Positions 1 to 63,672 of a stretch of 64,000 nt of DNA are shown piece by piece. Position 1 is the first letter of the stretch, and every line of letters begins with the position of its first letter. Under the pieces are notes generated by a model. The model saw only the letters and a list, made by a program, of their open reading frames with translations. It ran no database searches and was not told the origin of the DNA. Location: IMG/VR virus record IMGVR_UViG_3300031669_005479, positions 138,815 to 202,814 of that record. One strand, 5' to 3'. The stretch is from a virus. Lineage: Duplodnaviria > Caudoviricetes. Made by a program: the position numbers and the translations under genes.

Positions 1-132
1 AAAAATATGAAGAATTTGAAGAAGCAGAATCCCAGGGAAAATTTTTTCACCAAAAGATAAATAATAATAAACAACATCCCATGCGTAAAGAATTTACACT
101 TTACCCTAACGAAATAAAGGAACTTAAACAAG

Positions 133-450: not shown

Positions 451-460
451 ATTTTAATAT

Positions 461-919: not shown

Positions 920-943
920 ATAATATTAATTAAAATAAATAAT

Positions 944-1138
944 ATGAAAACAGGAGCAATTACTTCAAGAAGAGAAACAGCAAAAAAATTACTTGAAACT
1001 CAACTAAAAAGAGGGACAAAACCAGAAAAAATTGATGGTAAAACCACCAATAAAATGGTACAATTGAGTCCATCAGATATTACTCGAATTACCAAAGAAC
1101 TCGATAGACTAAATAATCCAAAGGGTAGTATAAAATAA
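944..1138 (+). CDS. hypothetical small basic protein
   Basis: 64-aa ORF between dut and thyA on the same strand. Confidence 0.6.
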   Translation: MKTGAITSRRETAKKLLETQLKRGTKPEKIDGKTTNKMVQLSPSDITRITKELDRLNNPKGSIK

Positions 1139-1158
1139 ACTTATTTTAATTATACATT

Positions 1159-2763
1159 ATGAAGCAATATTTAGAATTGTTAGAGAATATTCTTACCAAT
1201 GGTGTTGAAAAGGAAAGTGGTAGAATTAATATGCCAAATACTATTGGTATATCAAACGCCATGATTAAAATGGATTTAACAGAAGGTTTTCCATTACTTA
1301 CCACAAAAAAAATGTATTGGAAAGGTATTGTTCATGAATTGTTGTGGTTTCTGAGAGGTGAAACAAATATCAAATATTTGGTTGATAATAATGTAAATAT
1401 TTGGAATGACGATGCATTTAGATTTTTTCAAGAACGTCTTTGGTTATTGCCTAATATTAAAAATATAACAATGGAAGAATTTCTTAATAGAGTTAAGAAC
1501 GAACAATTCGAAGAAAAATTTCATTATAAATATGGTGATTTGGGTCCAGTTTATGGACATAATTGGAGAAATTATAATGGTAAAGTGAACTACTATCATA
1601 TTAGTAAAAAACCTAAGTTTGAATTGGATGATTCGTATGTGTTTGGTGTTGGGATCATTGAAACTTGGAGAGGCATTAAAAAACGTCCGTTATTTAATAC
1701 TTGGTATAATATGATTAGTAGATGTTATAACTACTATGATCCCAATTTTTCAGTATATGGTGGTAGGGGCGTATATGTTTCAGATGATTGGTTAAATTTT
1801 AAATTATTTGATGAAGAGGTAAAGACAATTTTAAATTATAGCAATAAATTAAACGATCCACATAAATATCAATTAGATAAAGATTATCTGGGTGGTAAAT
1901 GTTATTCAAAAGAAAATTGTATTTGGTTTAGTACTGAAAATAATTCAAGATTAACGACTAAAAATTTTGAATATATCATATCTAATGGTGAAAAAACAAT
2001 AACGACAACTAATATTCAAGGAACTGCAAATGAATTGGGAATCGAACCAACAAATTTGAATAGGGTTTGTAGTGGTGTTAGAAAAAGTGTTGGCGATTGG
2101 TATTTGGTAAGTAAAACAGATTTTAGAATTGGTGAAGACCAAATTGCTAATATTTTAAATCAATTGAAAGAAAATCCATATTCGAGATATCATATCTTGG
2201 ATGGTTGGAATCCAATACAAAGAAAAATAAGTGCACTTGCTCCATGTCATCTACTATATCAATTCATTGTAAGACCTTTGAGTTTTCATGAGAGAGAATC
2301 AATTGCAATGCAAAGAAATATTATTACTAAAGATGAGTATGGACATCTAGTTGGAGTTGATGTTGCAAATGCAGAATATGAAGAAAGAATACTTGGTGAA
2401 AATAATATTCCAAAATTTTATCTTGATTTAAATATGTATCAGAGGAGCGTTGATTCTGCACTTGGATTGGGATTTAATTTAGCTTCTATGTCATTATTGT
2501 TAATGCTATTTGCAAAGGTAAGTAATATGATTGCAGGTGTGGCAACATGGATTGGTGGTGATACACACATTTATGTTAATCATATTGATGGTATTAAAAA
2601 GCAACTGGAAAGAGAGCCATATCAATTACCTCAAATGATAATAGATAAAAAAATAAATTCACTGGATGACATTCTAGCATTAACCATTAATGATTTTGAA
2701 TTAGTTGATTATGTATCACACCCAAAAATTGATTTTGAATTATTTACTGGTTTGAAAAAATAG
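1159..2763 (+). CDS. thyA: thymidylate synthase with an in-frame HNH-like insertion
   Basis: FPLLTTKKMYWKGIVHELLWFLRG, DLGPVYG, LAPCH, YQRSVD, GDTHIYVNH; about 180 extra aa between GPVYGHNWRNYNG and DQI. Confidence 0.95.
   Translation: MKQYLELLENILTNGVEKESGRINMPNTIGISNAMIKMDLTEGFPLLTTKKMYWKGIVHELLWFLRGETNIKYLVDNNVNIWNDDAFRFFQERLWLLPNIKNITMEEFLNRVKNEQFEEKFHYKYGDLGPVYGHNWRNYNGKVNYYHISKKPKFELDDSYVFGVGIIETWRGIKKRPLFNTWYNMISRCYNYYDPNFSVYGGRGVYVSDDWLNFKLFDEEVKTILNYSNKLNDPHKYQLDKDYLGGKCYSKENCIWFSTENNSRLTTKNFEYIISNGEKTITTTNIQGTANELGIEPTNLNRVCSGVRKSVGDWYLVSKTDFRIGEDQIANILNQLKENPYSRYHILDGWNPIQRKISALAPCHLLYQFIVRPLSFHERESIAMQRNIITKDEYGHLVGVDVANAEYEERILGENNIPKFYLDLNMYQRSVDSALGLGFNLASMSLLLMLFAKVSNMIAGVATWIGGDTHIYVNHIDGIKKQLEREPYQLPQMIIDKKINSLDDILALTINDFELVDYVSHPKIDFELFTGLKK
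1582..2130 (+). mobile_element. HNH-type endonuclease plus HTH domain inserted in frame in thyA (boundaries approximate)
   Basis: TWYNMISRCY, YGGRGVYVSDDW, LDKD, YSKENCIW and a C-terminal HTH-like segment (ANELGIEPTNLNRVCSG); no intein terminal residues. Confidence 0.75.
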
Positions 2764-2767
2764 ATGA

Positions 2768-3013
2768 ATGATAATACTATACATATTAATAGTATTATTG
2801 GTGCTAATAATTTTGTTATTAGCACTGGCATTGTTTTATTTTTCGAAGAAAAGTGTATACTTTTCAAATAAAGAAAATGAATTCATTACATTTGTTATTG
2901 ACATATTTGAACAATATGGAGATGATTTAGGTATTCAGTCTAAAGAACAGCATGAAAAATTGACAAATGAACTCGATAAAATTAAAAAAAAACTAAATAA
3001 AAGAGGAGAGTAA
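2768..3013 (+). CDS. small membrane-anchored protein
   Basis: Hydrophobic N-terminal helix followed by a charged tail. Confidence 0.65.
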   Translation: MIILYILIVLLVLIILLLALALFYFSKKSVYFSNKENEFITFVIDIFEQYGDDLGIQSKEQHEKLTNELDKIKKKLNKRGE

Positions 3014-3030
3014 ATTACTCTCCCTTTTTT
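3003..3030. terminator. intrinsic terminator between convergent genes
   Basis: GGAGAG-taaatta-CTCTCC hairpin followed by a T-run. Confidence 0.7.
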
Positions 3031-3051
3031 ATTCATATAATACGTTTTAGT

Positions 3052-3756
3052 CTACAATGTATATATATCGTCTTCATTTGAATCAATATTGTACCAATTA
3101 TTATAATCATAAGGGTTAATTCCCTTTCTTTCCAAATATTTTCCAGTAACAATATTTACTAATTTAGGATTTATTTGCATGTCTCTAATATCATTAAAAA
3201 AGTAATGATTTTTATCTAAACGCAATTCTTCTGGGTCATATCCCTTATACTCCCAACCATTTACAATTTTGCCACCATTTTTTAGTATTGCAAAATGCGT
3301 ATATTTGGGATTAACATTAAACATTCGTCTAGTTTCATCCATAGGTTGTTCGTCATTAATGCCATCATATAAATTACTAACAATTAATTTGAATTCTTCT
3401 TTAGCTGGTTCAATATCGCTTTCATTGGTAATCCAATAGAAATCTTCATTTTGATTACCGTCATAATCCATTTGAATACCATTTTTTTTCAAATCTTGAA
3501 TGATTTCTTGTTTTAGACTATCGTTTCTACCAATCTTAGTGACACCATTTTTACTAAACAATTCATTATACATCGTATCTGTAATTTGTTTAATTTGTGT
3601 TGCTTCTTGTTTGCTCACATAAACTTTATTTGTTGGTTTATTATAATATCCACCATCAGAAGCAACTGCAAGTTCTTCATTAAGTTTTGGTTTAAAATCG
3701 GAATTAACTTTACTCATGACCTCAAAAAGCCTTTGTTTATTACTATTTTTCATCAT
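3052..3756 (-). CDS. hypothetical late protein with KQRLFEVM leader (putative virion-packaged)
   Basis: N-terminus nearly identical to 35239..35631; GTATTTAT motif just upstream. Confidence 0.7.
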   Translation of the reverse strand: MMKNSNKQRLFEVMSKVNSDFKPKLNEELAVASDGGYYNKPTNKVYVSKQEATQIKQITDTMYNELFSKNGVTKIGRNDSLKQEIIQDLKKNGIQMDYDGNQNEDFYWITNESDIEPAKEEFKLIVSNLYDGINDEQPMDETRRMFNVNPKYTHFAILKNGGKIVNGWEYKGYDPEELRLDKNHYFFNDIRDMQINPKLVNIVTGKYLERKGINPYDYNNWYNIDSNEDDIYTL

Positions 3757-3825
3757 ACTTAAATTTACTATAAATACATATTAATTTCTTTTTGTTTCAC
3801 TACCTATTACTATTTTTCATCATAT

Positions 3826-4386
3826 TTAAATATGAGAATCCCCCTTTTCACCATCATCAAAATTAAAAACATCAGATTTTACGGGAACACCAGTAATGCG
3901 TTTCCAGTATGACTTAAATCCACCAATGGTTTTGCTCGTTTCGTCTGTTACGTTGTTGGCACTTTCAACTTCATAATATCTATTTTTCTGACCACTCATG
4001 TTGTATTCAATTATATCACCTCTATCTATTTCTAAGTGTTTATCTTCAAGTTCTTTTAAATACACTCCAAATGATATGTTACCAGTGTCATCACGAGCAA
4101 TTCCACCTGGATTGTCACCATAATTTACTTGTTTACCTTCCTCAATATTAATCATCACACTGATTTTAACTGGCGACATAAATTTTTTATCTTTAGTTTT
4201 TGTTTGTCCATAAAGATTATGTGATTTTGTCTCAATTATATTTATTTTATGAATAATAACTTCTTGTGCATTGTCTGTTTGTAAGAAATTTCTACCATAC
4301 ATGACATCCAATTCAAATGAATTGTTTGTCATGAATAATCCCATTCTTTGACTTTCAATATCAATAATTTGTTTTTTCTTTTTCAT
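3826..4386 (-). CDS. neck / head-closure protein (T4 gp14-like)
   Basis: HNLYGQ motif, position downstream of a gp13-like gene, late motif upstream. Confidence 0.6.
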   Translation of the reverse strand: MKKKKQIIDIESQRMGLFMTNNSFELDVMYGRNFLQTDNAQEVIIHKINIIETKSHNLYGQTKTKDKKFMSPVKISVMINIEEGKQVNYGDNPGGIARDDTGNISFGVYLKELEDKHLEIDRGDIIEYNMSGQKNRYYEVESANNVTDETSKTIGGFKSYWKRITGVPVKSDVFNFDDGEKGDSHI

Positions 4387-48484: not shown

Positions 48485-49021
48485 ATGCATAACATTATTG
48501 AACAGGAATATAGTTCAGCAAAAACATCAATAAAACAAATTCCAGCTGGTGTTAATATTATTGATAAATATTTTGGTTGGAAGCCCAATACAATTAATTT
48601 GGATATTGGTGGTGGAAAATATGAGTTAATGACAGAGAATTTACATGAGAAGCATGTTTTGAATTTAGTTTATGATCCCTATAATAGAAGCATTGCACAC
48701 AATCAAATGGTTTTAACGGCATGTAAATCACTTGTAATAGATACTGTAACCATATTTAATGTGCTGAATGTTATTAAGGAGCGTGAAATTCAAATAGAGG
48801 TGATTAATCTTGCATTAGCGATGCTTAAAATGAACGGTATGTTATTTGTCAGGTCAACATATATGAATAAAAATAAGGTGTCTGGCGTAACAAAATTGGG
48901 CACATTTCAGCATCACATGAAGCAATCAGAGTATCTTAAGATAGTTCAGAATGTTTTTCCAAATGCTGAGTTAAATCATGGAATAATCTTTGCAAAAAAG
49001 TTATCCAACATAGTAACATAA
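48485..49021 (+). CDS. class I SAM-dependent methyltransferase-like protein
   Basis: NLDIGGGKY, VYDPYN, DTVTIFNVLNVI. Confidence 0.7.
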   Translation: MHNIIEQEYSSAKTSIKQIPAGVNIIDKYFGWKPNTINLDIGGGKYELMTENLHEKHVLNLVYDPYNRSIAHNQMVLTACKSLVIDTVTIFNVLNVIKEREIQIEVINLALAMLKMNGMLFVRSTYMNKNKVSGVTKLGTFQHHMKQSEYLKIVQNVFPNAELNHGIIFAKKLSNIVT

Positions 49022-49065
49022 AGTAAAAATATTCGTATAATTAGTAAATTATAATTCTTACTATA

Positions 49066-50151
49066 ATGGAAATGTTAAAAAAGGTTGATTGGAATTTGTT
49101 GAATACTTATATTGATAATAGTCATATTGTAGCAAATAAACACCCACAATATGATATTTGGATATTGAACTATTCACCAAAGGCACAATCTAATAAATTT
49201 TGGGATATATATACCCTATCTTGTCGTGGATTGGTGATTGATGTCGATGGTAATATATTAGCACGTCCATTTCAAAAATTTAAAAATTATGAAGAGCATA
49301 ATCCATCAGAAATCGATATGTCACAAGAATTTGATATTTTCGAAAAAATGGACGGTTCGTTAATCATAGTATTTTACTATGTGCCACGTATGGAATGGAT
49401 TGTCGCTTCAAGAGGTTCATTCATTTCTGAACAGTGTATGGAAGCAAAGAAAATGATTGATGTAAATATTTACAATAAACTTAAAACTGATTGTACATAT
49501 TTATTTGAAGTAATATATCCAGAAAATAGAATTGTTCTTGACTATGGAAATAGAAGAGAATTGGTATTGCTTACAAGGATTAAAACTGAATCTGGTATGG
49601 AAATGTACTATGATGATTTAGTTGCAACATATTCAAAATACTTTACTGTTGTAAAGAAATACATACTAAATGATATTCATGACCTAAATGATTTAAAAGC
49701 AATTGAAGAGGAAAACAAAGAAGGATTTGTTGTTAGATTCTTAAGTGGATTTAGAGTTAAGGTGAAATTTAGCGAATACATTAGATTGCATGGTATTTTA
49801 ACAAATGTTTCTAATCTAACTGTTTGGGAACACTTAAAAAATAATTATGATTTCGATGATTTGTTGGATAGAGTTCCAGATGAATTCTACAGTTGGCTGA
49901 AAAGAACAGTAAGGATATTACAAGGAGAATTCAATGAAATTGAAAGATTGGCGTTGAAGGATTTTGTAAGAATTTACTATACTAATGGAGTCACAGAACG
50001 CAAAGAATTTGCAATGGAAGCAATTAAAACTGAACATCGTTCAATACTGTTTAGATTGTACGATAAAAGAGGTTATGATGAAATTATTTGGAAACTGGTG
50101 AGACCAATATATTCAAAGCCATTTTCTAAAAATTTTGAAAATATTTCATAA
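49066..50151 (+). CDS. RNA ligase (T4 Rnl1/RnlA-like)
   Basis: CRGLV, RPFQKFKNY, EKMDGS (motif I), ASRGSF, YLFEVI, EGFVV, RVKVK. Confidence 0.9.
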   Translation: MEMLKKVDWNLLNTYIDNSHIVANKHPQYDIWILNYSPKAQSNKFWDIYTLSCRGLVIDVDGNILARPFQKFKNYEEHNPSEIDMSQEFDIFEKMDGSLIIVFYYVPRMEWIVASRGSFISEQCMEAKKMIDVNIYNKLKTDCTYLFEVIYPENRIVLDYGNRRELVLLTRIKTESGMEMYYDDLVATYSKYFTVVKKYILNDIHDLNDLKAIEEENKEGFVVRFLSGFRVKVKFSEYIRLHGILTNVSNLTVWEHLKNNYDFDDLLDRVPDEFYSWLKRTVRILQGEFNEIERLALKDFVRIYYTNGVTERKEFAMEAIKTEHRSILFRLYDKRGYDEIIWKLVRPIYSKPFSKNFENIS

Positions 50152-50162
50152 AAAATTAAATT

Positions 50163-50396
50163 ATGGGTGGAATATTAGAAAAGAAAGAAAATGGATGGTA
50201 TGTTAGATGGTCAGACCTACATTCATTTATCAATGGAACGCATTGGATGTGCACACCATTACATCCAACAGAAATTGTTGATGAAACAAAATATAGTGAT
50301 GGTGATGAAGTAGAATTTGAAATGGTTGTTACTACTGGTTACGATGTAGAAAATTTCATTCCATTTAGATATGTTAAACTCTTAAAACAAAAATAA
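50163..50396 (+). CDS. hypothetical protein
   Basis: 77-aa ORF. Confidence 0.6.
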   Translation: MGGILEKKENGWYVRWSDLHSFINGTHWMCTPLHPTEIVDETKYSDGDEVEFEMVVTTGYDVENFIPFRYVKLLKQK

Positions 50397-50440
50397 TATT
50401 TTATTTGTGGTAGTACTAGTATTTTTAATTAAATAATTAT

Positions 50441-50632
50441 ATGATGAAAGAAAGATATATGATTGTGAGAATAGTGAATATTCTTGCAGAAATGAAAGAT
50501 AATGGTTCGATGATAACTGAACCATGTTATCAAATAGTTGATAAAGATTATGAGACACCAGATTCTGCTTATAATGTTAAAGAAAATTATAGAGAACCGA
50601 AACACTATATCGTTGTACAATATTGGTGCTAA
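50441..50632 (+). CDS. cassette 1 hypothetical protein
   Basis: Stop codon TAA lies inside the GCTAAC box. Confidence 0.6.
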   Translation: MMKERYMIVRIVNILAEMKDNGSMITEPCYQIVDKDYETPDSAYNVKENYREPKHYIVVQYWC

Positions 50633-50758
50633 CGTCAAATGTATGGTTAGTGGCGAATTAGAAACCACAAACCTATCAAACTGAACAAAAGTAAGTAGAT
50701 AAAACAAATGTTAAACCACACACAAAACCGCCATTAACTATACATATTGTTAGGCGTA
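50627..50758. repeat. attC-like site 1
   Basis: TGCTAAC...ATGTATGGTTAGTGGCG / CGCCATTAACTATACAT...GTTAGGCGTA. Confidence 0.8.
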
Positions 50759-50780
50759 TGTGCTTTAAAATCATAAAAAT

Positions 50781-51200
50781 ATGAAATACGAATTAAGACA
50801 TCATTCATATAAACCAACTTTAGGAGGTAAAAGTGTTCTGTCGAATAAAACAATAAACGACCTTGGTGAAAGTGCATTATATTACGTAGGAACATTTAGT
50901 GAGTATAATCCATTGTATTTGGGAAACAATTCATTATTATATATAAGAAAAAACTGGACAACAGATGGGAATATACTGCACAAGATTAACTTAAAAGGAT
51001 TAAAATTTAAAGGCGGAATTAATCATTCTGGTTCTGGTATTTGCACTCATGGAGGATTCCAATTAACTAAACAAGATTTATTAAGAATTGCTAATGCTAT
51101 GGATGAAACAGATACCCTTGTTTTATCTGAAATCATACAAAAGACAGAGGAAGGAATTAAAATGTTCAAAGATGGACTAATAGAGGTTGTAGGTTCTTAG
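50781..51200 (+). CDS. cassette 2 hypothetical protein
   Basis: Flanked by GTTAGGCGTA and TACGCCTAAC. Confidence 0.7.
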   Translation: MKYELRHHSYKPTLGGKSVLSNKTINDLGESALYYVGTFSEYNPLYLGNNSLLYIRKNWTTDGNILHKINLKGLKFKGGINHSGSGICTHGGFQLTKQDLLRIANAMDETDTLVLSEIIQKTEEGIKMFKDGLIEVVGS

Positions 51201-51203
51201 CAT

Positions 51204-51301
51204 TACGCCTAACGATTGGGTATATACGAAGTACCCTAACTACAAACTTAAAAATTAGTACAAACCTTAATAGGGTATTTCGTATATACCTTGTTAGCAA
51301 A
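51204..51301. repeat. attC-like site 2
   Basis: GCCTAAC...GGTATATACGAAGTACCCTA / TAGGGTATTTCGTATATACC...GTTAGCAAA. Confidence 0.82.
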
Positions 51302-51312
51302 TCGTAAAAATT

Positions 51313-51453
51313 ATGCCAAGAGAACCACTACCATTAAAAAGAGAACATAAAGGCGATGTAACAATAAACATCGCAGATATATTTAGAAATCCTGAAATGC
51401 AAAAAGAAGCTATAAAAGGTTGCAAAAAACTTAAACCACGTAAACGTAAATAA
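51313..51453 (+). CDS. cassette 3 small protein (46 aa)
   Basis: MPREPLPLKREHKGDVTINIADIF...; flanked by GTTAGCAAA and TTTGCTAAC. Confidence 0.55.
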   Translation: MPREPLPLKREHKGDVTINIADIFRNPEMQKEAIKGCKKLKPRKRK

Positions 51454-51461
51454 TTTATATG

Positions 51462-51592
51462 TTTGCTAACGGTTTTAATATAAAACGTTGCAACATAAAG
51501 GTAAATACATGTAACAAAACTTGAAATTAAACGTATAATATAATAGAAACCACAACAGCAATGTTTTATATTTGTTGTTATAAACAGTTTCA
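51462..51592. repeat. attC-like site 3 (contains an ECF-like promoter)
   Basis: TGCTAAC...ATATAAAACGTTGC / GCAATGTTTTATAT...GTTATAAAC; TGTAAC-N16-CGTA at 51510-51535. Confidence 0.8.
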
Positions 51593-51610
51593 TCATTTAA
51601 TTTTTTTATT

Positions 51611-51775
51611 ATGAAAGAAGATAAAGTAATAAAAGCAATTGAAATATACATAAGAGAAACGGGTAATAAGTATGGTATAAGTTTAATTAAAAAATTAAAT
51701 GATTACATATACCAAATAAATGACCGAGAAATAAATATAAACACAAACTCTATTGGATACACAGATATTGAGTGA
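51611..51775 (+). CDS. cassette 4 small protein (54 aa)
   Basis: MKEDKVIKAIEIY...; flanked by GTTATAAACAGTTTCA and TGAAATTGTTTATAAC. Confidence 0.55.
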   Translation: MKEDKVIKAIEIYIRETGNKYGISLIKKLNDYIYQINDREININTNSIGYTDIE

Positions 51776-51910
51776 AATTGTTTATAACGTTGATTGTATG
51801 GCACGTTGCCACTACTAAGTTTAATTTGAAAAACAAAATATTATGATTACAGAAATAGAAAAATTGAAAAAACTACAGCAATGTGCTATACAATGTGTTA
51901 TGGCACGTAC
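51773..51910. repeat. attC-like site 4 (right arm is translated)
   Basis: TTATAAC...ATTGTATGGCACGTTGC / GCAATGTGCTATACAAT...GTTATGGCAC. Confidence 0.8.
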
Positions 51911-52151
51911 TTCTGATGCTGAATTAGCTACAAGAGCGACACGAGTTGGAGAGCTTCATTGTTTGCACATAGCAGCAACTATGAATATAGAAGAAACTGC
52001 CAAAAGCTTAACACAAATACTTGAATACAAACAAGAACTCGCAAAAGAGATGCTGCGGTGTTCGGACGAAAAAGCAACCGACCAATTAGCGGATGCAATT
52101 ACATATAGTGACGAAATGATTAAAAAGGTGCTTGGTATGTATGTGCCATAA
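51843..52151 (+). CDS. cassette 5 hypothetical protein
   Basis: Start lies inside the loop of site 4; stop in the CCATAAC box. Confidence 0.6.
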   Translation: MITEIEKLKKLQQCAIQCVMARTSDAELATRATRVGELHCLHIAATMNIEETAKSLTQILEYKQELAKEMLRCSDEKATDQLADAITYSDEMIKKVLGMYVP

Positions 52152-52435
52152 CGGCTGGCGGTATGGTGTCGGTTGCCGTTGAATAACCCACCGACTTTGA
52201 TTAAATGAACAAATGTTGAATAACTTAAATAGTGAGCGATTATGAAACAAGCGGAAATAGTAAAACAAAGATTAAATTACCACTTTAGAAAAACAGATGG
52301 TGGATGGTTAATACCAGAAAATATGCCATTTATGAATGAGTTTTTAAACGAGGTAAGTAAATTATGTGAATTAGCGAACGGTGCTGAACAAAGAGAAAGC
52401 AACTGCAATATACCGCTTGTTAGCACACGTTATTT
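52139..52435. repeat. attC-like site 5 with an expanded coding loop
   Basis: GCCATAAC...GCGGTAT...GGTTGC / GCAACT...ATACCGC..GTTAGCACAC; arms more than 200 nt apart. Confidence 0.7.
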
Positions 52436-52580
52436 TGCTAAAATTAAATACTACCCTTGCACGGGTGGAGAACCAATATGGACTGTTGATGAAGTAGATG
52501 CAACAAGTATCGAGCACGCTACCGAATTGTTTAATGATATATGGCACATGAACGCAGAAGTTAAATGCGTGTATAAATAA
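52242..52580 (+). CDS. cassette 6 hypothetical protein
   Basis: Reads through the right arm of site 5 (ESNCNIPLVSTR). Confidence 0.6.
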   Translation: MKQAEIVKQRLNYHFRKTDGGWLIPENMPFMNEFLNEVSKLCELANGAEQRESNCNIPLVSTRYFAKIKYYPCTGGEPIWTVDEVDATSIEHATELFNDIWHMNAEVKCVYK

Positions 52581-52680
52581 TGTGTGCTAACGGTTGGGTG
52601 TATGAGAAGGTTTGCTTAGATGAACTTTCAAATTACTACTAAACTTTATAGCAAACTTTCTTATACACCTTGTTATGCTC
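52575..52680. repeat. attC-like site 6
   Basis: GTGCTAAC...GGTGTATGAGAAGGTTTGCT / AGCAAACTTTCTTATACACC..GTTATGCTC. Confidence 0.82.
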
Positions 52681-52792
52681 TCGTGCCGACTTATTAACCA
52701 CAAATCTTAATTTGAAACACGAAATAAAAACAAAAAGAATTTTAGGGTGGATTTTTTAAAATTGAATATTTATATATATAAAACAAAAACCT

Positions 52793-53260
52793 ATGAGTGA
52801 AGATATACGTAAAATGATTGATAAGGTGAAAAACTTTAAGCAGTTTGTTAATGAGAATGTTGATAATTATTACACATTATATCATGGAACAAGTAGTGGT
52901 AGATTAGATTTTATTAAATCAAAACCAACCAAATTATTTTTAACTGATAGTGAAGATGTTGCAACATATTATGCTGCAAAAGGTGGTGAAGATTATTTTA
53001 TGACTAAAGAAATTGAATTTGAAAAACAATATGGCGAAACACCAGATGATTATTTTAACACACAAGAAAATGGCGAACTACCTATGTTTAAAGCATTATA
53101 TCCTAAAAATGAAACCCCAATTGTTATAAAATTTCAAATACCTAAAAGTTTAATTAAAAACATTAATGATTTTATTGGATATAAAGGTGGTGAATTATTA
53201 GTTGAACCAAATTATATTTCAGAAATTATTAGTATTGATTTTGATGATTTAGATTATTAA
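52793..53260 (+). CDS. cassette 7 protein, putative ADP-ribosyltransferase-fold with late-type leader
   Basis: MSEDIRKMIDKVKNFKQFVNE leader, LYHGTS...LFLTDSEDVATYYA; own TATTTATA motif. Confidence 0.55.
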   Translation: MSEDIRKMIDKVKNFKQFVNENVDNYYTLYHGTSSGRLDFIKSKPTKLFLTDSEDVATYYAAKGGEDYFMTKEIEFEKQYGETPDDYFNTQENGELPMFKALYPKNETPIVIKFQIPKSLIKNINDFIGYKGGELLVEPNYISEIISIDFDDLDY

Positions 53261-53329
53261 AAAGTGCGTAGGGAAATTCTTTTTGTTTTTCATCACGAAA
53301 CTCAAATTGAAACACAGAACTAAGGCATG

Positions 53330-53461
53330 GAGCATAACGGCTGCGTGTATGAAACGTTGCCATCACAGAAGTAAATAGAATGAATAAAATTATAAATTTA
53401 GTATAAACTTAAAAAAGACCACGAAAGGCAATGTTTTATACACGTTGTTATGTGGCGTTAA
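53330..53461. repeat. attC-like site 7
   Basis: GAGCATAAC...CGTGTATGAAACGTTGCC / GGCAATGTTTTATACACG..GTTATGTGGC. Confidence 0.82.
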
Positions 53462-53466
53462 TTATT

Positions 53467-53700
53467 ATGACACCAAAAAAAATTGAAACGTATGTAGATT
53501 TACCTGAATATGGTAAGTATGTACTTGTAAGTGGAATTGACAAACGAATGTATGATACTCGTAGATGGCACGTTTGTGAAATGAATGATTTGGAAGATGG
53601 ATTAGATTATCGTGATAAAGGTCAATTTTTTTGGCTTACCGAGAACGGAACTAAAATTGAAGAAGTAACACATTGGTGCGAGTTACCACCTCTTCTTTAA
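53467..53700 (+). CDS. cassette 8 hypothetical protein (DUF551-like)
   Basis: DLPEYGKYVLV...VTHWCELP; flanked by GTTATGTGGCGTTAA and TTAATGCCACATAAC. Confidence 0.65.
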   Translation: MTPKKIETYVDLPEYGKYVLVSGIDKRMYDTRRWHVCEMNDLEDGLDYRDKGQFFWLTENGTKIEEVTHWCELPPLL

Positions 53701-53771
53701 TGCCACATAACTCGTTTATATATGCACCTATTTACTAAGTAAGTGTCTGATAATCATTAAATAAATTAGTA

Positions 53772-54005
53772 ATGGCTAATGAAATAATTGGTATGTGGAT
53801 ACTTAGATATGATGATTGGTATTTAATCATTACATCTGATAAGAAAGTGTTTGACGTTAAAACAAAAAAACAACTTATTGAGTATTGGAATAATGGAACC
53901 ATTGCGTATAGATTACCATGTTCAACCAAGAAAATAGGAATTAAAACAATCAATAAGTATTGCATAAAAAGTACGGTTGTATTGCAAGAATTTTGCCCAT
54001 TTTAA
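53772..54005 (+). CDS. hypothetical protein
   Basis: 77-aa ORF. Confidence 0.55.
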   Translation: MANEIIGMWILRYDDWYLIITSDKKVFDVKTKKQLIEYWNNGTIAYRLPCSTKKIGIKTINKYCIKSTVVLQEFCPF

Positions 54006-54022
54006 AAATAATTACAAATTTT

Positions 54023-54064
54023 TGTAACATTTTGTTGTTTATTACGTATTTATACTTATATTTG
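54023..54064 (+). promoter_or_regulatory. stacked promoters of tRNA cluster 3
   Basis: TGTAAC-N16-CGTA, GTATTTAT and GTTG-N19-TATATTTG all overlap here. Confidence 0.75.
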
Positions 54065-54101
54065 TAATCTGAAAAACAAACAAAATTAAAACAATAGAAC
54101 A

Positions 54102-54194
54102 ATGAGAACTTTTGGTAAATATTATTTTAGTAAAAAATCATATAAGAAACAACTTATAGGAATCGGGAATAGTATGTCCAAAAGAAAATCATAA
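54102..54194 (+). CDS. attenuator leader peptide 3 (Lys/Tyr-rich)
   Basis: MRTFGKYYFSKKSYKKQLIGIGNSMSKRKS; AATCGGG complementary to the terminator 5' arm. Confidence 0.83.
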   Translation: MRTFGKYYFSKKSYKKQLIGIGNSMSKRKS

Positions 54195-54214
54195 TGATTT
54201 TGGAATTAAACCAT

Positions 54215-54245
54215 AAAAACCCGATTCGAAAGTTTCGGGTTTTTT
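54215..54245 (+). terminator. attenuator terminator 3
   Basis: AAAAACCCGA-ttcgaaagtt-TCGGGTTTTTT. Confidence 0.9.
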
Positions 54246-54263
54246 ATTTTTTAAAAGTGAAAT

Positions 54264-54350
54264 GTACCTATGGCTCAATTGGTAGAGCAACTGGCTTTTA
54301 ACCAGTGGGGTTGCTAACGCACGTTGAGGGTTCGAGTCCCTCTGGGTACA
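54264..54350 (+). tRNA. non-canonical tRNA-Lys(TTT) with a 19-nt variable region
   Basis: GTACCTA/TGGGTAC, ACTGG-CTTTTAA-CCAGT, variable region GGGGTTGCTAACGCACGTT. Confidence 0.88.
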
Positions 54351-54355
54351 CAAAT

Positions 54356-54428
54356 ATCTCAGTAGCTTAGTTGGTAGAGTAGGTGTCTCTTAAACATCGG
54401 GTCATGGGTTCGAATCCCATCTGAGGTA
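54356..54428 (+). tRNA. tRNA-Lys(CTT)
   Basis: ATCTCAG/CTGAGGT, GGTGT-CTCTTAA-ACATC. Confidence 0.92.
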
Positions 54429-54434
54429 CAATTT

Positions 54435-54503
54435 GGGAGTAATTCTTTGGAGAAACCAGCTCTGTAAAAGCTCACATAGTGGGTTCGATGCCCTCTACTC
54501 CCA
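54435..54503 (+). tRNA. minimal tRNA-Tyr(GTA) with no long V-arm and a 4-nt D-loop
   Basis: GGGAGTA/TACTCCC, TTCT-TTGG-AGAA, AGCT-CTGTAAA-AGCT, GGTTCGATGCC. Confidence 0.75.
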
Positions 54504-54797
54504 CTTATTTTAGTATCAATAGTTTCCAACACCTTTAATGGATTCTAGTTTAATCGAATGCACAAAAGGGGCAATTGTTTAAAAACGATTGCCTTTTTTA
54601 TTTTCGAATGTATTTCAATGTAACGTTTTGCCATTTCCATTTCAAATATTCAGTACGATTGAGGTCTTGAATTTCTTCACGAATTATCGAAATCACACTA
54701 CTCATGATTAAATTTTTTTATTCTAAATAACCTTGCACTTTAATTAAAAATGAATTATCTTTGTGCAAAATAACTTTATGCTTAAATAATTTAATAA

Positions 54798-55544
54798 ATG
54801 GCAGAGAAGAAAAAGAAGGTAACCACTACTGTTACCACTACAGTTACCGAAGAAATCATCGGTAATTCAATTAACGAAAAAACACAAATTATTTGTATTC
54901 TTGATAGAAGTGGTTCAATGTCAAGTATTATGAGTGATAGTATTGGTGGATTCAATACGTTTCTAAAACAGCAAAAAGAACTACCTGATGATGCAGCACT
55001 AACAGTTGCGTTGTTTGACGATAAATACGAATTGCTTTATGATAACATTGACATTAAAAAGGTCAAAGAACTAACAAAAAAAGAATGGTTTCCTCGTGGC
55101 ACAACTGCATTGTATGATGCAATTGGTAAAACAATCAATACTGTCAGAACAAATCGTGAGCATTTGGGTGATGAAAAACCAACCAAAGTATTGGTATGTA
55201 TTGTAACAGATGGTCTTGAAAATGCAAGCAAGGAATACAGAATTTCCGAAATTAAGGAACTCATAAAAAATTGTGAAAAAGATGACTGGAATTTTATATA
55301 TCTTGCTGCAAATCAAGATGCATTTGATATTGGTAGTTCATTTGGTATAAGTGGTAGCAATACGTATACATATACTGCTTCGGCAGCGGGTGTGTATAAT
55401 ATGTCAAACACATTAAATGCTTCTGCATCCACATATCGAAGCATGAGCATGTTTGATGCAGATTTTGATAAAAAATCAAAATCTTTGATAAATGATTATA
55501 GTGGAAGCGCAATACCCACTATTCTTACTAAAGATACGAAATAA
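54798..55544 (+). CDS. von Willebrand factor A domain protein
   Basis: ILDRSGSM (DxSxS MIDAS), GTTALYDA, IVTDGLENAS. Confidence 0.9.
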   Translation: MAEKKKKVTTTVTTTVTEEIIGNSINEKTQIICILDRSGSMSSIMSDSIGGFNTFLKQQKELPDDAALTVALFDDKYELLYDNIDIKKVKELTKKEWFPRGTTALYDAIGKTINTVRTNREHLGDEKPTKVLVCIVTDGLENASKEYRISEIKELIKNCEKDDWNFIYLAANQDAFDIGSSFGISGSNTYTYTASAAGVYNMSNTLNASASTYRSMSMFDADFDKKSKSLINDYSGSAIPTILTKDTK

Positions 55545-55745
55545 TTTTCCTTTTTTTTATTATATTTTTTTCTTTATTTATGGGAGCAAATTGCTCCCAT
55601 TTTTTATTAAAAGTTTGTGAATGAATTTGTTGAAAAATTTTCAAAAATATAACATTTTTTCATAATAAAAATCAATAATACCTTGTATTTATGATGGACA
55701 AACAATATATTTGTAAACATAATTTTTATAAAAAATTTTTAATTT

Positions 55746-58700
55746 ATGACAAATAATATTCTTAAAAGTTTTCCCAAACAAGAGGTGGAAAAAGCAGCAT
55801 TACAATACTTTAAAGGTGATGAGTTAGCAGCAGACGTTTGGATTAAAAAATACTGTTTAAAGGATGAAAATAACTTTTATGAATTGACTCCCGATGACAT
55901 GCATCGAAGAATTGCAAAAGAAATTGCAAGAATTGAAGCAAAATATATAAATCCGCTTTCCGAAGACCAGATTTACGAAACACTAAAAAATTTTAAAAGA
56001 ATTGTGCCACAAGGCAGTCCAATGTCAGGAATTGGTAATAATTTTCAGGTAGTTTCGCTAGGAAATTGTTTTGTTGTTGGTAATGATGCTGATTCATATG
56101 GTGGAATTATTCGAATTGATGAGGAGCAAACACAATTAATGAAGCGTAGAGGTGGTGTTGGTCATGATTTGTCGATGATCAGACCAAATATGACACCAGT
56201 AAAAAACAGTGCAATTACTTCTACAGGTATCGTTCCCTTCATGGAAAGATATTCGAATAGCACAAAAGAGGTTGCACAGGATGGACGACGTGGTGCATTA
56301 ATGTTATCCGTGTCAATAAAACATCCTGATGCAGAATCGTTTATTGATGCAAAATTATTACAGGGAAAAATATCTGGTGCAAATATTTCGGTAAGAATTG
56401 ATGATGAGTTCATGAATTCGGCATTAAATGAAAAATCATATAATCAACAATATCCAATTGATGGTATCGCCAAGTATCAAAAAGAAATTGATGCATCAAA
56501 ACTTTGGAAAAAAATTGTTCACAATGCTTGGAAATCTGCCGAACCTGGTATTCTTTTTTGGGATAAAATTCTAAATGAATCAATACCTTCATGCTATGGT
56601 AAAAAATGGGTTGAAAAAAGCACAAATCCATGTGTCAGTGAAGATACATTAATATTGACAGATGATGGATATCTACCGATCAAAGAATTGGTTGGTAAAA
56701 AGGTTAATGTTTGGAACGGTGAAGAGTTTTCCGAAACCATTCCAGCAATAACTGGATATAATCAAAAAATGATTAAAATAAAATTTTCTGATGGTAGTGA
56801 ATTAAAATGTACACCATATCATAAATTCTACACTTGGAAAGGTTTTGAACGTGATGGAAAGGTAATAAAAAAGAACGGAAATGAACTTATTGTTGGTGAT
56901 AAGTTGGAAAAATATAAATTTCCAAAATTAAAACGAGATTTGAGCACTGGCCATCATATTTACATATCGACTGATAATATTGGCAATGGCTACATAACAA
57001 ATAAGGAATTTTATACTGCAGGTTTTTTTGCTGGTGACGGACATATTAAAAGAAATGATGAGTATATGATTTCATTATATGGAGTAAAAAAAGAATTAAT
57101 ACCATATTTGGAAATTATTGGTAATGAATCTGAGGATATTGCTAACGATAAAATTACGGTAAGAATAAATTTACCAGAATATTTTAAATTTAGTCCTCAA
57201 AACATACCAATTAAAAAAATAATACCAATCTATGAAAAGGGGATGCCTGAATTAGATGTGTTGAATTGGTTGGCTGGTTTAATCGATTCTGACGGTTCAC
57301 GTAATTCTGATAAAGGGTCAATATCAATTTCTTCAATAGATAAAAACTTCTTAATGCAAATTAAACTAAATATATTAAATACGTTTGGTATTAATGGAAG
57401 TGTTATTGATGAAAAGAATGGCGGTATTAAGAAAATTAAGGGAATTGAATATGAAACAAATAAATCATATAGACTAATAATTAGCGCACATAATGTTAAA
57501 AAATTATATGATTTAGGTTTAAGAACACATAGAGTTAAAATCGATGATGTTAATCCAAATCGTGATGCATCTCGATTTATAACTGTTGAATCAATTGAAT
57601 CTATCGATGATGCAGACGTTGTATATTGTTTTACTGAAGAAAAACGTGGGAGAGGTTGCTTTAATGGCGTGGTTACTGGACAATGTGGCGAATTGCCGTT
57701 GCCACCATATGATTCATGTAGATTGGTGTGCATGAATTTATATGGTTACGTTGTAAATCCTTTTACAGTAAATGCGTATTTTGATGAGGAAGCATTTAGT
57801 AGAGATGTACAGATTGCTATGAGGTATATGGATGATATTGTAGACCTAGAAGTTGAAAAAATCGATACTATTTTATTGAAAATTCAATCCGACCCAGAAT
57901 CAGACGAAATTAAGTTAGTTGAAAAGAATTTATGGGAAAAAATTCGTGGTATGGCACTTGAAGGTAGGAGAACTGGCTTAGGCGTTACTGCAGAAGGAGA
58001 TATGCTTGCCGCACTTGGCTTACGATATGGTACAGAAGAGGCGACAATATTCAGTGAAAATGTGCATAAGGGACTTAAATTAAACGCATATCGCTCATCA
58101 GTTACAATGGCTAAAGAACGTGGTGCTTTTCCAATTTATAATCATAATTTAGAATCAAGCAATCCGTTTATATTAAGAATTTTAGAAGAAGACCCACAAT
58201 TACATTACGATATGTGGACTTATGGTCGTAGAAATATTGCACTGCTAACTATTGCACCAACTGGTAGTGCAAGCTTAATGACACAAACAACATCAGGCAT
58301 TGAACCAGCATTTTTACCTGTTTATATGCGTAGACGTAAGATTAATCCACAAGAAAAGGATGTTCGTGTGGATTTTATTGATGATGAGGGTATTTCATGG
58401 ATGCAATATCCAGTATTTCATCATAAGTTTGAAATATGGTTAGAAGTTGAGGGATATGATGTTAATGTTGTTAAAACCATGAGCAAAGAACAACTTGACG
58501 AAATTGTGAAGAAATCACCCTATTATAAAGCAACATCAAATGACGTTGATTGGGTGATGAAAGTTATAATGCAAGGTAAAATACAAAAACATATTGACCA
58601 TAGCATTTCTGTTACGGTTAATCTTCCAGAATCGGTGAGTGAAGAAACTGTTGCAAAAGTATATGAAACTGGTTGGAAATCTGGTTGCAAAGGCATTACT

Positions 58701-59354
58701 GTTTATCGTGATGGTAGTAGAAATGGTGTACTTGTTGGTGCAGAAGATAATAAAAAAGAAAATTTTCACGAGAATCACACACCCAAAAGACCAAAAAGAT
58801 TGAAGGGTGAAATTCACAAATTTCAAAATAATTTGGAAAAATGGATTGCCGTTGTTGGCCTACGTGATGGTAGACCATATGAAATTTTCACTGGAAGACT
58901 TGAAAATGGATTAAGTAAATTACCTCCAAACATTAAAGACTGTGAAGTTGTTAAACAAATATTTGAAGTAGAGGAAATGGATGAGGATGGTAAAATGATT
59001 AAAGTTAGAAAAAAAAGATACGATATTGAATATATTGATAGTAATGGCGAAAAACAAATACATACTGGTTTAAACCACGCATTTAATCCTGAATATTGGA
59101 ACTATGCAAAACTTTTTTCAGGTGTACTTCGACATGGTATGCCAATTATTTATGTCTATCAACTAATTAATTCTATGAATCTAAATAGTGATCATTTGAA
59201 TACGTGGAAAAATGGCGTTGCACGTACAATAAAAAAGTACATTAAGGACGGTGAAAAAATTGAAGGTAAATGTCCTGAATGTGGTAGTGAACATTTAGAA
59301 TTTAAAGAGGGATGTTTAATCTGTATGTCCTGTGGTAGTTCAAAATGTAACTAA
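55746..59354 (+). CDS. nrdJ: class II (adenosylcobalamin-dependent) ribonucleotide reductase with intein
   Basis: SLGNCFV, RRGGVG, TNP/CGE active site split by the intein, RRTGLG, TIAPTG, KGITVYRDGS, C-terminal CPECG...CMSCG. Confidence 0.92.
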   Translation: MTNNILKSFPKQEVEKAALQYFKGDELAADVWIKKYCLKDENNFYELTPDDMHRRIAKEIARIEAKYINPLSEDQIYETLKNFKRIVPQGSPMSGIGNNFQVVSLGNCFVVGNDADSYGGIIRIDEEQTQLMKRRGGVGHDLSMIRPNMTPVKNSAITSTGIVPFMERYSNSTKEVAQDGRRGALMLSVSIKHPDAESFIDAKLLQGKISGANISVRIDDEFMNSALNEKSYNQQYPIDGIAKYQKEIDASKLWKKIVHNAWKSAEPGILFWDKILNESIPSCYGKKWVEKSTNPCVSEDTLILTDDGYLPIKELVGKKVNVWNGEEFSETIPAITGYNQKMIKIKFSDGSELKCTPYHKFYTWKGFERDGKVIKKNGNELIVGDKLEKYKFPKLKRDLSTGHHIYISTDNIGNGYITNKEFYTAGFFAGDGHIKRNDEYMISLYGVKKELIPYLEIIGNESEDIANDKITVRINLPEYFKFSPQNIPIKKIIPIYEKGMPELDVLNWLAGLIDSDGSRNSDKGSISISSIDKNFLMQIKLNILNTFGINGSVIDEKNGGIKKIKGIEYETNKSYRLIISAHNVKKLYDLGLRTHRVKIDDVNPNRDASRFITVESIESIDDADVVYCFTEEKRGRGCFNGVVTGQCGELPLPPYDSCRLVCMNLYGYVVNPFTVNAYFDEEAFSRDVQIAMRYMDDIVDLEVEKIDTILLKIQSDPESDEIKLVEKNLWEKIRGMALEGRRTGLGVTAEGDMLAALGLRYGTEEATIFSENVHKGLKLNAYRSSVTMAKERGAFPIYNHNLESSNPFILRILEEDPQLHYDMWTYGRRNIALLTIAPTGSASLMTQTTSGIEPAFLPVYMRRRKINPQEKDVRVDFIDDEGISWMQYPVFHHKFEIWLEVEGYDVNVVKTMSKEQLDEIVKKSPYYKATSNDVDWVMKVIMQGKIQKHIDHSISVTVNLPESVSEETVAKVYETGWKSGCKGITVYRDGSRNGVLVGAEDNKKENFHENHTPKRPKRLKGEIHKFQNNLEKWIAVVGLRDGRPYEIFTGRLENGLSKLPPNIKDCEVVKQIFEVEEMDEDGKMIKVRKKRYDIEYIDSNGEKQIHTGLNHAFNPEYWNYAKLFSGVLRHGMPIIYVYQLINSMNLNSDHLNTWKNGVARTIKKYIKDGEKIEGKCPECGSEHLEFKEGCLICMSCGSSKCN
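56631..57683 (+). mobile_element. Gln-terminal LAGLIDADG intein (351 aa) at the RNR active-site Cys
   Basis: Starts CVSEDT, ends GVVTGQ followed by Cys; motifs AGFFAGDG and LAGLIDSDG. Confidence 0.92.
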
Positions 59355-62591: not shown

Positions 62592-62777
62592 ATGGAACTA
62601 ATATCGATTAGTAAAGCAAGTAAAATCTTAGGTGTCACGCAAAAAACATTAAGAGTTTGGGAAAGGGATGGTGATATTATAGCATTTTACACACCTAAAG
62701 GTCATAGAAGATATAACTATGATTACATTATTGATTTAAGTAAAAATGGAAAAAAATCAGCGCAATCATTGGACTAA
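62592..62777 (+). CDS. MerR-type HTH (IS607 TnpA N-terminus-like)
   Basis: ISKASKILGVTQKTLRVWER...TPKGHRRY. Confidence 0.8.
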   Translation: MELISISKASKILGVTQKTLRVWERDGDIIAFYTPKGHRRYNYDYIIDLSKNGKKSAQSLD

Positions 62778-63672
62778 AGAACGCTGTGCTATTGAGGCGT
62801 TGAAATATAGTACCAGAAGTGATTTTTGGAAATATTCTAAATCAGCATATAATGCATCAATTAGAAATAAGTGGTTAAACGAAATTTCTTATCACATGCA
62901 CAGTAAATTAGTTGTATGGGATAGAGAAAATTGTCACCAAGAAGCATTGAAATACAAAACAAGAAGTGAATTTAATAGGTATTCATTAAATGCATATCGT
63001 TATGCATTGAAAGAACATCTTCTTGATGAAATATGTTCTCACATGATAGTTATTGGTAATAAAAAGAAAAGATGTATTTACGTATTTGAATTTGGTGACA
63101 ATTTTGCTTATGTTGGATTGACATACAATACCAATAAGCGAATCGTTGAACATTTAAGTACCAGAAATTCACAAGTATATAAACACGTTCAAACCACTAA
63201 TTTAACACCAGTATTTAAACAATTAACAGATTATCTTGATGTTAGTGATGCGATGATAAAAGAAAATGATTATTTAACACAATATGAGAATAATGGATGG
63301 AAATTATTAAATAAAGCAAAAACTGGAGCATTGGGTGGTAATGAAGTTTATTGGACTATTAAAAAATGTCATGAAGAGGCGTTAAAATACGAAAAAAAAT
63401 ATGAATTTATGAAGGGCACTCCAGCAGCATACAGTGCTGCATATAAAAACGGATGGCTGGTTGAAATTTGTGAACATATGATTGAATCATATAAGCCAGA
63501 TGGATATTGGAATATTGATAAATGTCATGAAGATGCATTAAAATATGATAAAAGAAATATCTATCAACATAAATCAAAATCTTCATACAATACCGCATTA
63601 AGGAACGGTTGGCTCGATGAAATCTGTCAACACATGCCAATACGCAGTAAAAAACATAAAAATGATAAATAA
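62746..63672 (+). CDS. GIY-YIG endonuclease flanked by repeated helical modules
   Basis: CIYVFEF...AYVGLT; repeated WTKERC..EALKY..R..F...Y..A...WL.EIC.HM modules. Confidence 0.83.
   Translation: MEKNQRNHWTKERCAIEALKYSTRSDFWKYSKSAYNASIRNKWLNEISYHMHSKLVVWDRENCHQEALKYKTRSEFNRYSLNAYRYALKEHLLDEICSHMIVIGNKKKRCIYVFEFGDNFAYVGLTYNTNKRIVEHLSTRNSQVYKHVQTTNLTPVFKQLTDYLDVSDAMIKENDYLTQYENNGWKLLNKAKTGALGGNEVYWTIKKCHEEALKYEKKYEFMKGTPAAYSAAYKNGWLVEICEHMIESYKPDGYWNIDKCHEDALKYDKRNIYQHKSKSSYNTALRNGWLDEICQHMPIRSKKHKNDK

Follow-up and report, generated by a model that had tools for sequence, protein, structure and literature searches.

Can a row of small genes in a phage genome, each set between imperfect hairpins, be passed on gene by gene, and by what means? 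The question is raised by an array within bases 138815-202814 of the 202,814-base IMG/VR virus record IMGVR_UViG_3300031669_005479 (Duplodnaviria; Caudoviricetes). These 64,000 nucleotides are referred to as the window, and positions are those of the window unless stated otherwise. The array covers positions 50630-53724 of the + strand and comprises seven hairpin sites that open with TAAC and close with GTTA (B1 to B7), each leading into a gene (units 1 to 7), followed by a terminal half site. The source is a phage and belongs to the jumbo class, because its genome exceeds 200 kb. The initial annotation had described the locus as an integron-like cassette array, and this description is borne out by structured, covarying hairpins, by private complementary ends, and by a gain, loss and movement of single units precisely at a conserved core. 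We consider it likely that the locus represents an integron-like gene-cassette system of Bacteroidota phages, in the form of an orphan array.

Hairpin sites and private boxes

The sites share one plan, namely a variable box, TAAC, a 5-nt spacer (consensus GGYTG), an arm of 17-21 nt, a loop of 30-240 nt, the complementary arm, TT, GTTA and a second variable box. An attC-like architecture, with AAC and GTT cores in an imperfect hairpin, is present at all seven sites of the window. The spacer is asymmetric, with 5 nt facing 2 nt, and two fixed G.T wobbles correspond to A.C mismatches on the opposite strand; bulged bases of the extrahelical kind found in classical attC were not seen in the sites. 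When the sites were folded as single-stranded DNA, the + strand performed better than the - strand wherever the hairpin forms.

A 20-nt pattern derived from the 3′ arm was used to retrieve IMG/VR contigs with such site arrays, and many were obtained. The covariance model R1 was built from 70 aligned sites of other contigs, none of them from this genome. TAACG and GTTA occur without variation in every one of these sites, compensatory double changes were observed in 18 of the 24 consensus pairs, and the two G.T wobble positions are retained in 49 and 67 of the 70 sites, respectively. Judging from this covariation, the hairpin structure is under selection. Searching the 202-kb record with R1 yielded 13 sites, six in the window array and seven in a second array, and none elsewhere. 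With filters switched off, the 64-kb window gave only the six sites of the array, scoring 61-95 bits on the + strand versus 15-33 bits on the - strand. The site family is likewise found in the genomes G001, G002 and G003 and in the huge phage LR756500.1.

Hairpins of this kind could also be regulatory RNA or DNA elements, such as transcript stabilisers, processing sites or promoter-associated stem-loops, between which genes are shuffled by homologous recombination with no dedicated enzyme. Their position in the 5′ leaders of co-oriented genes, the fixed G.T positions, which would be G.U pairs in a coding-strand RNA, and the recurrence of hairpin types with different boxes and open reading frames (ORFs) are in accordance with such a role. 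A precedent would be the PeSL cassettes of T4-type phages, reportedly described by Arbiol et al. in 2010 as promoter-plus-stem-loop repeats that are thought to recombine by homology. As in the present array, small accessory genes in hyperplastic regions of large phages are bracketed there by stem-loop repeats and shuffled as modules; unlike the present sites, PeSLs are not known to carry private complementary boxes or an AAC/GTT core, nor to be associated with a tyrosine recombinase. Moreover, in the present array a T-run is missing behind every site, none of the sites coincides with a terminator-like hit, and no Rfam family matched them near its gathering score. We regard a purely regulatory role as quite unlikely, since homologous exchange within hairpins would not provide each gene with private complementary boxes, which are the second hallmark of the array.

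The initial annotation had listed, along with the seven hairpins, seven pairs of boxes in which the left box of a cassette is the reverse complement of its own right box; all of these pairs were recovered from the sequence letter for letter. If G.T is accepted and the count proceeds from GTTA/TAAC outward, the boxes of one cassette pair over 6, 6, 13, 10, 13, 6 and 11 nt (mean 9.3), as compared to a mean run of 1.1 for the two boxes of one hairpin and of 0.84 for all non-own pairs (maximum 4). The observed sum of pairing is reached by the true assignment of partners only (36 of 200,000 permutations, approximately 1 in 5040). Past the first 5-6 nt most box pairs extend via a G.T position, sometimes after one bulged T, which results in a predicted helix of 9-17 bp in a circular unit. 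Family-wide, the mean run amounts to 5.8 for 102 distinct units versus 1.1 with random partners. Thus, in the window and in these 102 units, the ends of a cassette are complementary to one another and not to the neighbouring cassette, as is the case in classical integrons.

This organisation resembles integrons and clusters of attC sites lacking integron-integrases (CALINs) in several respects. There, single promoter-poor genes lie between imperfect hairpins of 60-130 nt with AAC/GTT cores, the complementary cassette ends are explained as one helix in a circle, a tyrosine recombinase gene is located beside a distinct terminal insertion site, and enzyme-less orphan arrays exist. In addition, sites within one community resemble each other, comparable to the homogeneous repeats of about 120 nt in the sedentary chromosomal integrons of Vibrio.

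Unit movement and the point of exchange

Fixed gene order across relatives had been named in the initial annotation as an argument against mobility; the order is, however, not fixed. The 87.8-kb contig L341, which stems from another assembly, is 100% identical to window positions 50630-56260 (5.6 kb) and 98% identical to positions 50304-50660, and between these stretches it contains an extra segment of 511 nt that consists of a hairpin, an ORF of 111 aa and its own complementary boxes. The insertion point is located between ...GGTGCTAAC and GTCAAATG..., at the TAAC of B1. The two arrays hence differ by the insertion or deletion of one unit, and TAACGT is the only sequence common to the junctions.

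A second case is provided by unit 6 (positions 52586-53338, + strand), which comprises the B6 hairpin, a 117-nt leader, a gene for 155 aa, the right box and TAAC, and whose limits were set by comparison. The exact unit 6 protein was found on seven public contigs. Four contigs from different projects (L342, L345, L346 and L347) contain positions 52586-53338 at 99.6% identity and no other phage DNA. In these four contigs the match extends from the TAAC of B6 to the C in the TAAC of B7. To its left the DNA is unrelated, and the right flank opens with TCGTTTATAAC, a near-match to the terminal site of the present array. One of them, the 4.2-kb contig L342 (JGI 3300001784), carries genes for an MFS transporter and an NfeD/serine protease beside unit 6 and looks bacterial by these neighbours. 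Taken together, the comparisons show units that have been gained, lost and transferred precisely at the conserved core. Homologous exchange between regulatory hairpins would not be expected to place breakpoints exactly at TAAC.

Within L342, the lone copy of unit 6 is situated between the MFS sugar-transporter gene and two terminator-like hairpins, and the insertion target resembles a lone terminal site (TAAC TCGTTTATAAC). L342 also came up when public contigs were compared with the window. A first test for co-travel, which compared homologous units between loci by blastn and tblastx, returned only duplicates of one contig, and a test for the linkage of boxes to hairpins was used instead.

This box-linkage test rests on similar hairpins from different loci, which form 254 pairs with at least 85% identity. 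Sixty-two pairs share only the downstream 12-nt box and two share only the upstream one; counted per hairpin cluster, the ratio is 12 versus 2. The box family of unit 6 occurs in 9 contexts; a single hairpin type lies upstream in 7 of them, and the downstream hairpin differs in all 9. Moreover, in units 4 and 5 the ORF has its start within the loop and crosses the 3′ arm and GTTA, so that a cut at GTTA would split both ORFs. Box linkage, these read-through ORFs and the junctions of L341 and unit 6 therefore show that the point of exchange lies within the 5′ TAAC(G), and that the unit is a hairpin followed by a gene. The initial annotation had placed the insertion of cassettes at G/TT; its integron-like cassette stands, but the point of exchange has to be moved to the 5′ TAAC.

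In this respect the array departs from classical integrons, where the ORF is followed by attC and the crossover takes place at G/TT of the R′ box, whereas here the hairpin precedes the gene and exchange would occur at the 5′ TAAC of the coding strand. With reference to classical attC, an exchange at TAAC of the + strand corresponds to AA/C cleavage on the recombined (bottom) strand. The equivalent of the recombined strand is the coding strand in the present case, so the genes face the opposite way to those of integrons. The fixed G.T wobbles and the 5/2-nt internal loop appear to stand in for the extrahelical bases of classical attC.

A recombinase linked to related arrays

In the relative G003, ten sites are immediately followed by a gene for a tyrosine recombinase of 269 aa. 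Its best-scoring models are XerA, XerC-like and integron integrase, all below the curated cut-offs (168 versus 220 bits for XerA and 153 versus 265 bits for integron integrase), and the catalytic Arg, His-x-x-Arg, His and Tyr motifs are present. The protein aligns to residues 16-180 and 261-316 of VchIntIA and has 33 residues where VchIntIA has 80, which means that the integron-specific insertion is absent. The array-linked enzyme of the relatives is thus, by alignment and profile score, a short Xer-like recombinase (265-270 aa) and not IntI. The flanks of the present array display no synteny with those of G003; only the hairpins and the cassette ends are common to both.

A profile of four Xer-like proteins matched 283 viral loci, of which the best 80 were examined. 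At least 1 kb of upstream sequence is available for 59 of the 80; the other 21 end less than 1 kb upstream, a pattern to be expected if assembly breaks down within repeated arrays. Hairpins are located upstream on the same strand at 51 of the 59 loci. Within 4 kb of the recombinase gene, the mean number of sites is 3.24 upstream on the same strand versus 0.02 downstream and 0.02 on the other strand, and at 43 of the 59 loci a half site of the form TAAC-N2-5-TATA[TG]A lies at most 200 nt from the start codon. The array in the window ends in a corresponding terminal site, TAACTCGTTTATATATG. The same 16-20-nt sequence closes the arrays of L004, L062 and L125, where the DNA behind it is unrelated, and in the recombinase-bearing relatives a related TAAC-N-TATATA site is positioned 30-60 nt ahead of the start of the recombinase gene. 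Homologous shuffling of regulatory hairpins would not link arrays to a recombinase and a terminal half site.

These features add to the differences from integrons: the adjacent enzyme of the relatives is of the short Xer/XerA type and lacks the integron-specific insertion, its gene is co-oriented with and downstream of the cassettes, and the carriers are phages, including huge phages, and Bacteroidota. A further system worth comparing is that of the pdif modules of Acinetobacter plasmids, in which discrete gene modules are likewise situated between inverted sites for a Xer-type tyrosine recombinase. The pdif sites are 28-bp double-stranded dif-like sequences used by the host proteins XerC and XerD. 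The present sites, in contrast, are hairpins of 85-130 nt with covarying stems, and the dedicated recombinase is, in the relatives, phage-borne.

The distribution of the sites points to Bacteroidota. The 20-nt hairpin motif occurs in at least 120 bacterial genome contigs, nearly all of them from this phylum, with Flavobacteriaceae (Maribacter, Polaribacter, Tenacibaculum, Cellulophaga) and metagenome-assembled genomes of Bacteroidales among the hosts, some of which carry the recombinase as well. Among named phages, homologues of the recombinase with 38-41% identity are encoded by the Polaribacter phages Freya_1-10 and Leef and by the Cellulophaga phage Ingeline. Freya_10 contains hairpin sites and a terminal TAAC ahead of the recombinase gene. 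The ten Freya isolates vary just upstream of this gene, and 100%-identity matches between them start at or right after AAC cores (query positions 903 and 4098). These ten isolates are otherwise near-identical, with differences of up to about 4 kb immediately ahead of the "integrase" (locus L339, positions 1-4200 of Freya_10). Danklef phages hold parts of that Freya stretch at another position of the genome, with no integrase under the match.

With the family-specific model R1 in the role of the attC model, the array would qualify as a CALIN (two or more sites, no integrase within 4 kb), and the record contains no recombinase. The array could accordingly be an ordinary CALIN, i.e., a classical attC cluster from a bacterial integron that serves as a substrate of the host IntI. 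The Xer-like gene of the relatives would then be an unrelated lysogeny integrase, in agreement with Bartlau et al., who read the enzymes of Freya and Ingeline as lysogeny integrases and do not mention cassettes. In the same vein, Qi et al. 2023 (PMC9892861) reported attC clusters in phage genomes and the recombination by IntI1 of one site of Polaribacter phage P12002L, which resembles the present phage in carrying attC-like sites without an integrase. According to the part of that article consulted, only two sites in P12002L were predicted by integron tools and treated as classical attC, and a Xer-like recombinase, a terminal site or a reversed geometry is not described in this part. Since P12002L contains weak members of the present family (R1 hits of 20-44 bits among methyltransferase genes), part of the site family had already been seen via integron tools. 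In our literature search, neither the Xer-like recombinase nor the terminal site was found described, and the same holds for the reversed geometry of the units and for an occurrence in huge phages; this does not prove that such a description is lacking.

Four observations argue against an ordinary CALIN. The recombinase clade is bound to arrays by position, strand and distance at the 51 loci mentioned above, the hairpin is linked to the downstream gene, in mirror image to classical cassettes, the R′ boxes often violate GTTRRRY (e.g., GTTAGCA and GTTATAA), and IntI was not seen beside any array inspected. We thus consider this explanation unlikely and favour an orphan array of a separate integron-like system.

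For such a system we infer the following sequence of events. The mobile unit would consist of a hairpin site and then a gene, reaching on the + strand from one TAAC core to the next. In a free circle the two private boxes of the unit would pair and lengthen the TAAC/GTTA helix to 9-17 bp; the extended helix would adjoin the 5-nt/2-nt asymmetric internal loop and a stem of 17-21 bp with the two fixed G.T wobbles. Cleavage and rejoining at the 5′ TAAC(G) of the folded + strand would most likely be the work of a tyrosine recombinase. Recombination between two sites could thereby release a unit, and either a site or the terminal TAAC-TATATA site could receive one. As the cognate enzyme, the Xer-like recombinase of 265-270 aa encoded directly behind the terminal site in related arrays is the most likely candidate. 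Because the record holds no such gene, the enzyme would have to act in trans, supplied by a co-infecting phage or by the host, or else be encoded in the unassembled third, approximately, of the genome.

Several observations weigh against an active cassette system in this phage. The statement of the initial annotation that the window contains no integrase is correct and extends to all 202,814 bases: profile searches of the 202 kb gave no match to Phage_integrase, Resolvase, Y1_Tnp or the Xer-like clade. A Phage_integrase match is also absent from two near-complete huge phages (429 kb, 96%; 324 kb, 100%) with 16-22 sites each and from LR756500.1 with 17 sites. Activity of the arrays in these genomes, the present record included, is therefore putative. 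Furthermore, the Xer-like enzyme lacks the insertion that integrons use on folded attC, and its action on hairpins is thus putative. A circular junction was not seen, and joints in public contigs are ambiguous. B5 is atypical, and the hairpin of B3 is not the minimum-energy structure. Finally, simple cut-and-paste does not explain that 186 of the 254 pairs of similar hairpins have different boxes on both sides, nor that identical hairpin-plus-box frames hold different ORFs: in the unit 6 frame the proteins are alike only in their first 22-30 residues, and the unit 7 frame contains an unrelated ORF in L009.

The joints in public contigs that we considered as candidates for excision or circles (50768>51194, 51588>52588, 50785>53708 and 51301>50747) have sides of 20-45 nt with unidentified letters between them and perhaps belong to other carriers; they were not counted. 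In run X1, from the soil community that contains the phage, a contig with a depth of 17 joins position 51301 back to position 50747 (555 back), which could be a circle or tandem junction of one unit or reflect the cassette order of another carrier. The summed contig depth in this run is 280-310 across positions 51074-51775 and 52478-52945 (hairpins and units 2, 3 and 6) versus 80-100 across the remaining phage, an approximately threefold difference, and a divergent copy of unit 2 reaches a depth of 386. More abundant other genomes in the same soil sample carry related units.

The units might alternatively be miniature transposons or repetitive extragenic palindromic (REP)-like elements, with a single-strand HUH (Y1) transposase or a serine recombinase as the mobilising enzyme. 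Imperfect hairpins beside a fixed tetranucleotide are, in general, also known from the ends of IS200/IS605 elements. The record lacks a Y1_Tnp or Resolvase match, as stated above, the gene that recurrently adjoins related arrays encodes a tyrosine recombinase, and each unit has one hairpin and private inverted boxes rather than two distinct end hairpins. This explanation appears highly improbable to us in comparison with the orphan-array reading, to which the remaining considerations refer.

With some hesitation, we lean towards the wider proposal of a second kind of integron, in which a Xer-like recombinase without the integron insertion would act on folded coding-strand hairpins. Bacteroidota phages, giant ones included, might then share a pool of single-gene units that also reaches bacterial chromosomes, and enzyme-less arrays could be served in trans during co-infection. 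So far, integrons have been regarded as devices of bacteria and, recently, of archaea that need a specialised integrase domain to act on folded single-stranded sites. The present system follows the same logic, with hairpin sites, complementary ends private to each unit, an insertion site at the terminus and the gain and loss of exact units; it occurs in giant phages of lytic appearance and throughout Bacteroidota, is linked to a simpler enzyme of the Xer-like type and has its site on the opposite side of the gene. Provided that the enzyme acts in the proposed way, hairpin recombination would be possible without the integron-specific insertion, the accessory genes in hypervariable regions of phages would have a defined mechanism of exchange, and an "integrase" in a flavobacterial phage would no longer be a reliable sign of lysogeny. 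Phages of Polaribacter and Cellulophaga that are in culture carry related enzymes and sites, which makes the question accessible to laboratory tests.

Layout of the array and its surroundings

All features of the array are on the + strand. The first site, B1 (50630-50752, 123 nt), comprises TAAC, the 5-nt spacer, a stem of 17 bp with G.T wobbles, the loop, the second strand of the stem and GTTA, and scores 80.5 bits with R1 (E 6e-15). It is followed by the unit 1 gene (50781-51200; 139 aa, no family), whose boxes are GTTAGGCGTA and TACGCCTAAC; the protein has no relatives among viral contigs. B2 (51210-51296, 87 nt; R1 87.6 bits) folds as DNA with -17.6 kcal/mol on the + strand versus -15.3 on the - strand (z -4.8) and precedes the unit 2 gene (51313-51453), which encodes a basic protein of 46 aa without a family. 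B3 (51467-51580, 114 nt) has an A+T-rich stem and scores 61.1 bits, and its hairpin differs from the minimum-energy fold on either strand; the unit 3 gene behind it (51611-51775) encodes 54 aa, again without a family.

B4 (51785-51900, 116 nt; R1 66.7 bits; fold -13.7 on the + strand versus -8.7 on the - strand) contains the start of the unit 4 ORF within its loop. The unit 4 gene (51843-52151, 102 aa) crosses the 3′ arm and the GTTA box, and its stop codon TAA is part of the next TAAC core. The atypical site B5 (52149-52422) measures 274 nt, has a long loop with the start of the next ORF, and was missed by R1; it is assigned on the basis of its stem and boxes, and both of its ends are conserved in L046. 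The unit 5 gene (52242-52580; 112 aa, no family) starts in this loop.

B6 (52588-52675, 88 nt; R1 85.9 bits; fold -15.1 on the + strand versus -11.9 on the - strand, z -5.0) represents a hairpin type that recurs in many contigs; a blastn comparison with named phages gave no match. Unit 6 itself encodes its 155-aa protein at positions 52793-53260. About 20 viral contigs share its N-terminal 22-30 residues (MSEDIRKMIDKVKNF...) with 90-96% conservation, and the remainder differs from protein to protein, as if a common leader or targeting peptide had been placed ahead of variable cargo. The motifs YHGTS and YYAAKG, together with weak Atlas hits at a chance-prone level, hint at an ADP-ribosyltransferase of the Arr/PARP type. 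A structure predicted from the single sequence was unusable, with a predicted local distance difference test (pLDDT) score of 32.

The highest R1 score was obtained for B7 (53335-53450, 116 nt; 95 bits, E 4e-18), which folds with -17.1 kcal/mol on the + strand versus -10.9 kcal/mol on the - strand and is 89% identical to a site in LR756500.1. The unit 7 gene (53467-53700) encodes 77 aa, or 89 aa from an ATG at position 53431, and matches DUF551 at threshold, the only match when Pfam and PHROGs were searched with every ORF of the array.

The array end (53697-53724) consists of the right box of unit 7, the last TAAC (53708-53711) and the terminal site, and no hairpin lies beyond; a half site near position 53697 that closes the array had been proposed before and is confirmed by this arrangement. 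The genes of the array point toward the terminal half site, which for this reason cannot carry an outward promoter for the cassettes. Matches to sigma-70-type promoters are not enriched in the array, and the Bacteroidota -7 motif TAnnTTTG occurs only twice on its + strand.

At the other end, the initial annotation had suggested a degenerate first box near position 50409. The best match to the expected box in positions 49000-50612 is 8 of 12, a value reached by 1976 of 2000 shuffled sequences, and the suggestion was abandoned. The array begins at the first hairpin, without the left box of a "cassette 0". For the ORF 5′ of the first site (50441-50632, + strand, 63 aa) no left box was found, and its status as a cassette lacks support.

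The second array of the record (G000) is located outside the window, at bases 36-2610 of the full record on the minus strand (locus L258), and accounts for the seven other R1-positive sites. The end of the record falls within this array. The short contig L351 links it into L004, where it continues and closes with the same terminal site, TAACTCGTTTATATA.

The completeness of the record is estimated at 66%. Phage hallmarks include a large terminase and 18 tRNA genes in the part scanned. The array is immediately preceded by a T4-type RNA ligase gene and followed on its 3′ side by an intein-bearing ribonucleotide reductase gene. Behind the terminal site are an ORF of 77 aa that belongs to no known family and two tRNA-Lys genes; the Xer-like recombinase is absent at that place. 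The large subunit of ribonucleotide reductase (55746-59354) is split by an intein with a LAGLIDADG homing endonuclease, and a GIY-YIG protein is encoded at positions 62746-63672.

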